The notes beneath the pieces are model-generated. The model made no database searches, was not told where the DNA came from, and saw only the letters and a list, made by a program, of their open reading frames with translations. DNA of 64,000 nucleotides, from positions 31,929 to 95,928 of the forward strand of contig JAOUFY010000001.1 of the NCBI GenBank assembly GCA_029857955.1, given 5' to 3'. The position numbers and the translations under genes were made by a program. Positions 17,274 to 18,667 of the stretch are shown here, in pieces; the first letter of the stretch is position 1; every line of letters begins with the position of its first letter. Origin of the DNA: Spirochaetia bacterium (lineage in GTDB: Bacteria; Spirochaetota; Leptospiria; Turneriellales; JAOUFE01).

Positions 17274-18377
17274 ATGAAATTTACTGTTTTAAATACAACA
17301 ACACCTTCACAGGAATTACAAACGGGGACAACTCGTACTAAAATCGACCTGCAACCGTGGAGTCAGCGACCCGTTGCAAAAAGCATATCTCATATTTGGA
17401 CATATCGTGATTATTCAGGGGCTTTTTTGTCGCGCATCAGTTCGTATCGAGACAAATATCGTGTTGAACCCGGATTATATAAAATAGGCGATCCTGATAA
17501 AGAAAGTGATGTTTTGGTTAGCGCAAATTACAAGCTCAGCTTTGATCACCTGCGGCGTCATTTGAAAAATCGTAATTTATGGATCATTGTTCTGGACACC
17601 AAAGGTATCAATGTCTGGTGCGCTGCAGGCAAAGGAACATTTGGAACACAGGAATTAATACAAAAAATAAACCAGACCAAAATACTTACGTACATTGCTC
17701 ACAAAAGAATCATTTTACCACAACTTGGCGGACCTGGAGTAAACGCCCACGAAGTGAAATTAAAAACCGGTTTGCGGGTTTACTATGGGCCTGTTTACGC
17801 AAAAGATATTCCTGAATATTTTGATAATGAACGTCAAACAAGTAAAAAAATGCGTTCAAGTTCATTTAAAATCCTTGATCGATTAGTCTTAACTCCCATG
17901 GAAATTAATCCAGCCATGAAATACTTCGTGTACTATGCCTTTGCAATTTTTATTTTTATGGGTTTACAAAGAAATGGAATCATTTTTAAAAATGCTCTGT
18001 ATGATGGTTTGCCATTTTATCTGGCAGGCATTGTCGCTATTTTTACCGGAGCTTTTGTTACACCACTTTTATTACCTTTTATACCATTTCGCGCTTTTTC
18101 TGTAAAAGGAGGTATGGCAGGTATAATGGCAACCATGATTTTATATTCTACAACAAATATGTTTAAAAACAATATTTTCCTCACACTGTTTTTATACACT
18201 TTTTTACCCATGATGTCATCTTTCATTGCTCTTCAATTTACAGGTTCGACGACATTTACAAATCCATCTGGAGTAAAAAAAGAACACAAATACGCTATAC
18301 CGGTTTATATTACCGGAGTCGTTGGTTCGATTTTTTTATTGATCATACAAAAAGTATATCTGCTGGGGGTTTTATGA
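17274..18377 (+). CDS. hgcA: Mercury methylation corrinoid protein HgcA
   Basis: Cap-helix signature GINVWCAAGKGTFGT (NVWCAAGK at nt 17610-17633). C-terminal multi-helix membrane domain. GAGAGGA RBS before the ATG at 17274. Confidence 0.9.
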   Translation: MKFTVLNTTTPSQELQTGTTRTKIDLQPWSQRPVAKSISHIWTYRDYSGAFLSRISSYRDKYRVEPGLYKIGDPDKESDVLVSANYKLSFDHLRRHLKNRNLWIIVLDTKGINVWCAAGKGTFGTQELIQKINQTKILTYIAHKRIILPQLGGPGVNAHEVKLKTGLRVYYGPVYAKDIPEYFDNERQTSKKMRSSSFKILDRLVLTPMEINPAMKYFVYYAFAIFIFMGLQRNGIIFKNALYDGLPFYLAGIVAIFTGAFVTPLLLPFIPFRAFSVKGGMAGIMATMILYSTTNMFKNNIFLTLFLYTFLPMMSSFIALQFTGSTTFTNPSGVKKEHKYAIPVYITGVVGSIFLLIIQKVYLLGVL

Positions 18378-18667
18378 AATACCTTTCAAATGTTTCTACG
18401 CTCACCTACGATGAATCTCTTTGTACAGGCTGCCGGTATTGCTCTCAGGTCTGCCCCAGTGGCGTATTTATCATGGAATCTAAAAAAGCCGTGATCACTG
18501 ATAAAGATTTGTGCATTGAATGTGGAGCCTGCCAGAAAAACTGTGATTCAAATGCCATCACTGTTCTAGCAGGCGTAGGATGTTCCAGCGCCCTTATACA
18601 AAGTTTTTTTACTGGAGAAGCTCCAAGCTGCGGATGCTCCGATGGAAGTAAGTCAGTTTGCTGTTAA
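18374..18667 (+). CDS. hgcB: Mercury methylation ferredoxin HgcB
   Basis: Two CX2CX2CX3CP motifs including CIECGACQKNC. Extra Cys in GVGCSS. C-terminal vicinal Cys pair (SVCC). ATGA overlap with hgcA. Confidence 0.9.
   Translation: MKYLSNVSTLTYDESLCTGCRYCSQVCPSGVFIMESKKAVITDKDLCIECGACQKNCDSNAITVLAGVGCSSALIQSFFTGEAPSCGCSDGSKSVCC

Follow-up and report, generated by a model that had tools for sequence, protein, structure and literature searches.

We describe here a mercury-methylation locus in a 64,000-nucleotide stretch of contig JAOUFY010000001.1 (assembly GCA_029857955.1), hereafter called the window, whose host is, as judged from its encoded proteins, an AT-rich (36.5% GC), uncultured spirochaete related to Leptospirales. 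The locus consists of three genes read on the forward strand, namely hgcC (17009–17263), encoding an 84-residue protein of the AbrB/SpoVT fold that is a putative regulator of the cassette, hgcA (17274–18377), encoding a 367-residue corrinoid-binding membrane protein, and hgcB (18374–18667), encoding a 97-residue ferredoxin. Together with a putative promoter/operator region in front of hgcC and a 3′ tail of about 100 nt, these genes make up a 1,914-bp block (16854–18767) that is missing in the two closest relatives.

The hgcC gene ends 10 nt upstream of the ATG of hgcA (17274), and its stop codon overlaps the GAGAGGA ribosome-binding site located 6 nt 5′ of that ATG. The hgcA frame closes with a TGA stop ending at 18377, and the ATG of hgcB lies within this stop (ATGA overlap at 18374–18377). 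Translation of hgcA could also begin at an in-frame TTG (17253); the GenBank entry uses the 367-residue form. Proteins identical to all three products are already in GenBank (MDH4261442-44), annotated as HgcAB-associated protein, HgcA, and HgcB of a Spirochaetia bacterium metagenome-assembled genome (MAG). The hgcAB pair itself is ordinary and previously annotated, and spirochaetes as a phylum are already counted in the literature among putative mercury methylators.

HgcA and HgcB as mercury-methylation proteins

HgcA combines a corrinoid-binding domain (approximately residues 38–190) with five transmembrane helices. The cap-helix motif NVWCAAGK occupies residues 113–120 (codons 17610–17633, forward strand), with Cys116 encoded by TGC at 17619–17621, and does not vary across a 20-sequence HgcA alignment (A1); by analogy, Cys116 is the counterpart of Cys93 of Pseudodesulfovibrio mercurii ND132, the Co-thiolate ligand (PMC11588087). 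HgcB carries two [4Fe-4S] motifs, CTGCRYCSQVCP (C17–C27) and CIECGACQKNC (C47–C57), along with three extra cysteines, C70 in GVGCSS and C96-C97 in the C-terminal SVCC. The eight cluster cysteines are unvarying in 65 relatives and the three extra ones are kept in all relatives with an uncut open reading frame. Of 80 related loci, at least 64 likewise have a separate hgcB directly 3′ of hgcA.

On the NCBIfam equivalog model NF040863, HgcA scores 378.3 bits (cutoff 275, E = 3e-113), and HgcB reaches 108.7 bits on NF040864 (cutoff 99, E = 1e-31), a modest margin, over model positions 1–93 of 93. Given these E-values, the match to HgcAB lies far beyond chance. HgcA is divergent, its next best match among 5.8 billion proteins being 58–60% identical; it deviates at 4 of the 76 columns that are at least 90% conserved among 83 other HgcAs, and every change is conservative. 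In its AlphaFold model (predicted local distance difference test score, pLDDT, 75), an alpha/beta N-terminal domain is followed by five long helices (residues 200–230, 241–265, 275–293, 301–323, and 331–363); a Kyte–Doolittle scan at a threshold of 1.6 detected three of the five, whereas the AlphaFold model gave all of them. A Foldseek search with this model returned the deposited HgcAB model 9a0b at the top (E = 7e-18), followed by large subunits of the corrinoid iron–sulfur protein (CFeSP), which matched the N-terminal domain only.

The similarity to CFeSP raises the question of whether the pair could be a relative of the acetyl-CoA pathway protein or a non-methylating HgcAB-like paralog. 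Such a reading can draw on the Pfam scan, which assigns to HgcA and HgcB only the generic CdhD and Fer4 domains, and on the solved sequence relatives of HgcA, which are CFeSP large (gamma) subunits only (HgcA 61–181 aligned with CFeSP 317–437). The more specific models point the other way: HgcA passes its own equivalog cutoff and fails both that of the fused HgcAB-like paralogs (193 bits, cutoff 285) and that of the acetyl-CoA decarbonylase/synthase (CFeSP) gamma subunit (65 bits, cutoff 306). Moreover, hgcA and hgcB are unfused, the cap-helix Cys motif and the five transmembrane helices are complete, and acs/cdh genes were not found within the 64-kb window. A neighbour-joining tree rooted on a CFeSP fragment (50 bootstraps) places the window HgcA within HgcA and away from CFeSP, with Kimura distances of 0.58–0.8 to other HgcAs against 1.96 to CFeSP; this tree comprises HgcA and CFeSP sequences, and discrimination from fused HgcAB-like proteins rests on hidden Markov model cutoffs and gene architecture. 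The nearest neighbours in the tree are a metagenome fragment (37 of 50 replicates) and the HgcA of a Leptospirales MAG (28 of 50).

Some observations temper this assignment. Support for the two sister groupings is moderate and the deep nodes of the tree are unsupported, and within the HgcA model confidence is lowest in the cap-helix segment (residues 116–122; pLDDT <50). Taken together, the sequence evidence indicates that the pair almost certainly represents true, intact mercury-methylation orthologs, and its identity as a CFeSP relative or HgcAB-like paralog is extremely unlikely.

These results agree with a previous sequence-only reading of the window, in which hgcA, hgcB, the cap-helix motif, and its Cys codon had been placed at the same coordinates, all of which were re-derived here. 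Its description of a corrinoid-binding-like N-terminal domain is borne out by the CFeSP homology and the Foldseek matches, and the approximately five hydrophobic helices that it listed appear as five in the AlphaFold model; the 97-residue length of HgcB, the ATGA overlap, both cluster motifs, the GVGCSS cysteine, and the SVCC pair are likewise all present. That reading had named profile searches and a CFeSP-rooted tree as ways to check the assignment, and both came out in its favour, and its claim that no other family combines these motifs also holds. The third gene of the unit, hgcC, was missing from that reading.

Among related loci, ten hgcB genes (L052, L055, L059, L063, L065, L068, L070, L073, L074, and L077), originating from Desulfobacula/Desulfobacteraceae, Defluviitaleaceae, and Anaeromonas, contain an in-frame TGA in precisely the place of window Cys70, beyond which the frame continues to an ordinary C-terminus closed by a vicinal Cys pair. 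Such genes probably encode selenocysteine-containing forms of HgcB, which fits the selenoprotein suggestion cited in PMC11588087. The full-length HgcA most like that of the window (P0002, 58% identity) is followed by a 280-nt uncalled gap with no called hgcB (L085 7071–7351 and L086 4690–4970), and this gap may hide a missed or TGA-interrupted hgcB.

HgcC, an AbrB-type protein with conserved cysteines

With 120.5 bits against a cutoff of 70, the product of the third gene matches NCBIfam NF040962 (HgcAB-associated protein HgcC); it reaches 39.7 bits on TIGR01439 (AbrB), its best Pfam match being MazE_antitoxin. Its AlphaFold model has a pLDDT of 85.5, and Foldseek and PDB profile searches match HgcC to the AbrB N-domain, SpoVT, archaeal AbrB-like DNA-binding proteins, and MazE. 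A winged helix-turn-helix (PF01022, HTH_5) was not found in HgcC, Pfam and NCBIfam scans giving AbrB/MazE-type domains only.

HgcC contains Cys10 and a vicinal pair, Cys55-Cys56. The pair is unvarying in 20 of 20 close relatives, nearly all of which also have a cysteine ahead of the AbrB domain. In a set of 150 family representatives (at most 50% identity; 147 in the tally of the pair), Cys56 occurs in 92%, an N-terminal cysteine in 84%, and the full pair in 78%. In the solved AbrB-like protein 5itj, Val-Val aligns with this pair, which in HgcC lies on the last beta-strand. An AbrB/PrlF/MazE-like gene upstream of hgcA has been described as a putative, mainly archaeal regulator and called toxin–antitoxin (TA)-related (PMC10349881); that paper makes no mention of the HgcC-family cysteines or of the 9-bp repeat array described below, and a literature search for hgcC returned nothing relevant.

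A candidate operator upstream of hgcC

A −35-like TTGACA hexamer of a putative hgcC promoter (16968–16973, forward strand), read from the sequence, is followed by a candidate operator (16976–17007, forward strand) that comprises four CTGA(T/A) cores, CTGATTATT CTGATTTTA CTGATCACA CTGAA. The cores (CTGAT at 16976, 16985, and 16994, and CTGAA at 17003) recur with an exact 9-nt period, and the array ends 1 nt before the hgcC ATG. The predicted transcript begins at about 17003 and would be almost without a leader. The four-core pattern has one match in the window and none in 100 shuffles, and neither a second hgcC copy nor a second composite operator was found in the window.

In loci from Nitrospirota, 'Deltaproteobacteria', and Leptospirales, hgcC is preceded by a TTGACA box and, after it, two to four 9-bp AATC(A/T)GATT units, near-palindromes that frequently overlap a TATAAT −10 box; TCWGA/AATCWGATT arrays precede hgcC-family genes in phyla besides that of the window host. 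The enrichment of these elements was assessed by a k-mer comparison of 19 hgcC upstream regions with 58 controls, which are longer regions upstream of hgcA in loci without hgcC. ATCAGA/TCTGAT occurs in all 19 hgcC regions and in 14 of the 58 controls (p = 1.6e-9), TAATCAGA in 11 of 19 and 0 of 58, and CTTGACA in 11 of 19 and 3 of 58; core pairs 9 nt apart are present in 10 of 19 regions and in none of the 58 controls, with four more in 577 kb of background. When 96 loci are taken together, neighbouring C(A/T)GA cores are separated by 9 nt in 104 cases, by 18 nt in 19, and by 27 nt in 15, other spacings being rare. Since the associated proteins are only 50–65% identical and the non-coding DNA nevertheless stays similar, the upstream array appears to be under selection. 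The site of a multimeric AbrB-type repressor would be expected to look like this, with a palindromic unit recurring at each helical turn across a promoter, and HgcC is accordingly a candidate DNA-binding partner of the array as predicted from sequence.

Several observations weigh against this interpretation. A large number of the hgcC loci belong to lineages akin to one another (Nitrospirota and allies), and upstream conservation could for this reason be partly inherited. A consensus promoter/terminator scan of 16700–19500 gave no excess over shuffled sequence, leaving the hgcC promoter unflagged and predicting no terminator after hgcB; in addition, the −10 element of hgcC is weak, and an obvious Shine–Dalgarno sequence was not seen for this gene. 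As for other control elements, Rfam returned only two tRNAs in the window at the gathering threshold, and the region in front of hgcC is therefore free of known riboswitches and leaders.

A putative regulator family shared with arsenic methylation

The genomic partners of the HgcC family were surveyed in 80 metagenome loci chosen by similarity to the HgcC protein alignment, and not to HgcA, as the best 80 among the matches listed; 73 of them had enough sequence for the downstream gene to be judged. The protein alignment was used for the choice, since a degenerate, AT-rich operator pattern of 13–16 nt would match metagenome DNA thousands of times by chance. In the window, hgcC adjoins hgcA, the defining context of NF040962; at the family level, against the expectation that hgcA would follow, the next gene is arsM in 63 of the 73 loci, hgcA in 10, and any other gene in none. 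The downstream proteins of approximately 280 residues are arsenite methyltransferases (354–373 bits on NF008823, cutoff 263), and the AbrB-like proteins linked to them score 122–124 bits on the HgcC model NF040962, at least as high as the window HgcC. Identity between arsM-linked and hgcA-linked regulators is 63%, compared with 66% within each group, and the nearest relative of the window HgcC is arsM-linked. The upstream elements are shared as well, the operator hexamer being present in 30 of 30 hgcA-linked and 49 of 57 arsM-linked loci and TTGAC in 27 of 30 and 50 of 57 upstream regions, respectively. The HgcC family is not hgcAB-specific, and its name understates its range, since among the loci compared it is mainly arsM-associated. 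As a caution, the 63:10 partner ratio describes the loci closest to the window HgcC among the matches listed and comes from a biased sample.

The nearest precedent for an arsenic-responsive regulator of hgcAB comes from ND132, whose ArsR2 is co-transcribed with hgcAB and responds to arsenic and S-adenosylhomocysteine. The occurrence of one putative regulator and operator with both gene types lends independent support to the proposed connection of arsenic with mercury methylation, by way of a fold unrelated to ArsR. Among the papers searched, none linked an AbrB-type protein to arsM, co-mentions of arsM with AbrB or antitoxins being incidental, and neither arsM nor another ars gene was found in the 64-kb window. 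One hgcC-hgcA locus (L017) stands out in also encoding a distant ArsM-like methyltransferase (1499–1918; 29% identity), about 800 nt 5′ of hgcC; no other locus seen had both kinds of partner close together.

These data bear on what kind of protein HgcC might be. Its best Pfam match and the treatment of the gene as a TA-system member in PMC10349881 would suit an antitoxin of the MazE/PrlF type, orphaned or vestigial, that sits beside hgcA without a regulatory role. No toxin gene adjoins hgcC, however: hgcA begins 10 nt after it in the window, and none of the 73 assessable loci has a toxin gene in the downstream position. The family-specific cysteines and the repeat array upstream of hgcC are conserved in addition, and we consider the antitoxin explanation improbable.

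A second alternative is that HgcC serves as a thiol-based metal(loid) carrier or chaperone, passing Hg(II) or As(III) to the methyltransferase, rather than as a transcription factor. Its vicinal Cys pair resembles the essential C-terminal CC of HgcB and can be likened to the Cys pairs of Mer transport proteins, and the family is co-located with two different metal(loid) methyltransferases. Against this stand the fold, which is that of a DNA-binding swapped-hairpin domain, and the near-palindromic, 9-bp-spaced repeats over the promoter, which are best explained by a DNA-binding multimer; carrier and regulator roles can also coexist. A carrier role in place of regulation is therefore rated as quite unlikely, and a DNA-binding regulator is the preferred reading of HgcC.

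The cassette as a probable insertion

The block that contains hgcC, hgcA, and hgcB lies between two genes conserved in relatives. On its left is a reverse-strand gene (14775–16850) for a membrane Fe-S/CCG ('FadF'/HdrD-like) oxidoreductase with Pfam CCG and Fer4 domains, a Leptospirales housekeeping gene outside the hgc unit; on its right is a forward-strand ccmH-like gene (18812–19384; Pfam CcmH, 37.7 bits), whose synteny is maintained in the two closest relatives, L087 and L088, long contigs that carry the most similar orthologs of the Fe-S/CCG gene. L087 is collinear with the window over 13905–16853 and 18884–22945 at about 72% identity. Local alignment places the junctions of the block at 16853 and 18768, and a 44-nt segment upstream of the ccmH-like gene (18768–18811) is conserved with L087. 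The ccmH-like gene is directly divergent from the Fe-S/CCG gene in both relatives and stands 100 nt (L087) or 214 nt (L088) away from it, with hgc genes absent between them.

Ortholog identities (78% between the window and L087 and 69% between the window and L088 for the Fe-S/CCG gene, and 68% between L087 and L088) identify L088, which comes from the same sample as the window (ERZ27296335), as the outgroup. Because this outgroup also has an empty site, one gain is more parsimonious than two precise losses. Furthermore, ClpC relatives at 83–93% identity exist, and no HgcA above 60% was found among the 5.8 billion proteins searched; the cassette of a sister Leptospirales genome shows the order hgcC-hgcA-hgcB too, within unrelated genomic surroundings.

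The alternative is that the common ancestor already had the cassette at this site and that precise deletions removed it from the relatives. This accords with the frequent loss of hgcAB reported in the literature (PMC7438021) and with the lack of marks that an insertion might leave. Flanking direct or inverted repeats and a target-site duplication were not found, only short AT-rich chance matches; no recombinase (integrase/transposase) gene lies within 10 kb of the cassette; and a shift in composition is absent, hgcA having 36.2% GC against 36.5% for the window. These negative results count against insertion. Ancestral presence would, however, require two independent deletions that left intact, alignable flanks in both L087 and the outgroup L088, and the unrelated context of the sister Leptospirales cassette also speaks against it. 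Comparison of these sequences suggests that the cassette was probably gained by insertion after the split from the nearest sampled relatives, precise loss being unlikely.

In the Leptospirales MAG GCA_040326155.1 (L084), a gene for a XerC/D-like tyrosine recombinase (7773–8717) is located 300 nt 3′ of the hgcB of the sister cassette and could be either housekeeping or a hint of mobility. The window also differs from L087 (1833–4738) in a block at 23028–27809, between the gene for a 321-residue protein (21974–22939) and a multihaem cytochrome c gene (27953–29479). This block contains tRNA-Tyr, tRNA-Thr, two DUF6989 genes, and the gene for a 1,077-residue hybrid sensor kinase of the 7TMR-DISM type that includes a SpoIIE domain; the genes flanking it are adjacent in L087, and it looks like a second indel, beside tRNA genes.

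Proposed mechanism and native role

In ND132, S-adenosylmethionine (SAM) methylates the corrinoid, Cys93 acts as the Co-thiolate ligand, and C73, C94, and C95 of HgcB are needed for activity (PMC11588087). By analogy, the membrane-anchored HgcA of the window would bind a corrinoid whose lower cobalt ligand is Cys116, and the SAM-methylated corrinoid would hand its methyl group to Hg(II). The two [4Fe-4S] clusters of HgcB would reduce the cobalt, while Cys70 and Cys96-Cys97 probably handle Hg(II); on this analogy, the organism presumably makes methylmercury.

For regulation and acquisition, we propose that a 1.9-kb block was inserted into the divergent promoter region between the Fe-S oxidoreductase and ccmH-like genes, bringing its own control in the form of the TTGACA box, the four 9-bp-spaced CTGA(T/A) cores, and hgcC. 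The three genes would be expressed as a single transcript, and an HgcC multimer would bind the repeats and repress hgcCAB. A thiol-binding metal(loid), captured by the N-terminal cysteine and the vicinal pair as a three-Cys site, may then release HgcC from the DNA. ArsR proteins have S3 As(III) sites, and this analogy, together with the arsM partnership, favours As(III) as the effector, with Hg(II) possible. Because the same family and the same repeats precede arsM in most related loci, HgcC-type proteins would be general regulators of metal(loid)-methylation modules and not specific to mercury.

The components of this scheme differ in strength. The explanation as a whole, centred on a complete hgcC-hgcA-hgcB cassette, is rated very likely. 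That HgcC is an autoregulator acting on the repeats is, on balance, favoured by the sequence data, whereas As(III) or another thiol-binding metal(loid) as its effector is a tentative suggestion drawn from analogy. With respect to metal(loid) sensing, the 22% of family representatives without the full CC pair argue against a uniform role for these cysteines. It is somewhat less tentatively suggested, though still short of even odds, that HgcC represents an uncharacterised class of AbrB-fold, Cys-dependent metal(loid)-sensing repressors that act on 9-bp-spaced AATC(A/T)GATT arrays and form a portable module in front of arsM or hgcAB.

The sharing of regulator family and operator-like repeats between arsM and hgcAB also permits a different view of the pair, in which hgcAB is genuine and its native role is a metalloid-responsive methyl transfer interchangeable with that of arsM, methylmercury formation being a side reaction or absent in vivo. 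The ArsR2–hgcAB link and the arsenic response in ND132 are in keeping with this, and the native function of HgcAB is acknowledged in the literature as an open question. To our knowledge, the hgcAB-bearing isolates tested have all methylated mercury, with rare exceptions, which counts against it. Among methanogens with hgcAB, eight of nine methylate mercury (PMC5893877). The window is without an ars gene, and common regulation is no proof of a common substrate. A non-mercury native role is compatible with the present data and arguably strengthened by them, yet it is judged unlikely, and mercury methylation remains our preferred assignment for the pair.

If HgcC does represent such a class of sensing repressors, hgcAB would be inducible in many lineages, Nitrospirota and Leptospirales among them, probably by As(III) or another thiol-binding species, and the native role of HgcAB would be tied to metalloid methylation or detoxification. 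The window adds one more predicted methylmercury producer, with a divergent HgcA that is useful for reference databases and is in itself unsurprising. The added value lies in the context, which provides a delimited, apparently portable hgcCAB cassette, a candidate regulator with its candidate operator, and a comparison of occupied and empty sites. In this setting, the regulation and the native function of hgcAB, both acknowledged questions, become directly testable.

Host lineage and metabolism

The placement of the host rests on several encoded proteins. The named ClpC relatives are all Spirochaetia/Leptospirales MAGs (73–83% identity), Turneriella (approximately 67%), or Leptospira (approximately 57%); orthologs of the Fe-S/CCG gene occur throughout Leptospira, Turneriella, and Leptospiraceae, and its named relatives are all spirochaetal. 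Lsa36 and TP_0789-like domains are encoded in the window, the former in tandem 352-residue paralogs of this Leptospira surface adhesin (43644–44702 and 44997–46055) that support an affiliation with Leptospirales.

The redox genes include, besides the HdrD/CCG-type Fe-S protein gene (14775–16850) and the multihaem cytochrome c gene (27953–29479), a two-subunit 2-oxoacid:ferredoxin oxidoreductase (49794–52450). These three loci suggest an anaerobic or microaerophilic, ferredoxin-based metabolism, typical of hgcAB carriers. Elsewhere in the window (9133–11479), genes for a LexA/UmuD-like S24 peptidase, a Y-family polymerase (IMS), and an SRAP-domain protein form a compact cluster of the SOS-mutagenesis type.

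Comparison with known systems

The window pair resembles HgcA and HgcB of Pseudodesulfovibrio mercurii ND132 in being encoded by separate, translationally overlapping genes, in the NVWCAAGK corrinoid domain and five transmembrane helices of HgcA, and in the two CX2CX2CX3C motifs, the extra cysteine, and the C-terminal CC of HgcB. Unlike ND132, the window host is an uncultured Leptospirales-type spirochaete, methylation by the pair is predicted from its genes, and the putative upstream regulator is AbrB-type instead of ArsR-type. The large subunit of CFeSP (AcsC/CdhE; 2h9a, 4djd) shares with HgcA the corrinoid-binding Rossmann-like domain, whereas it has T/A at the position of the cap-helix cysteine, lacks a transmembrane domain, and possesses an additional N-terminal [4Fe-4S] domain and a TIM barrel.

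The window HgcC belongs to the same family (NF040962) and occupies the same place, directly 5′ of hgcA, as the gene described in PMC10349881; in contrast to that mainly archaeal case, it is found in Spirochaetota, and the family is widespread in Nitrospirota-type loci as well. Like ArsR2 of ND132 (ArsR/SmtB), HgcC is a small, Cys-bearing putative regulator encoded directly 5′ of hgcAB and linked to arsenic, which makes it a functional analog; the two proteins share no homology, since HgcC has an AbrB swapped hairpin with an N-terminal cysteine and a vicinal pair, while ArsR2 has a winged helix-turn-helix (PF01022) and a four-Cys site. With AbrB, SpoVT, and Sso7c4, HgcC shares the N-terminal swapped-hairpin DNA-binding fold, and AbrB-type proteins act as multimers on extended AT-rich sites; it differs from all three in the CC pair on the last beta-strand, the N-terminal cysteine, the C-terminal helix, and the linkage to methyltransferase genes.

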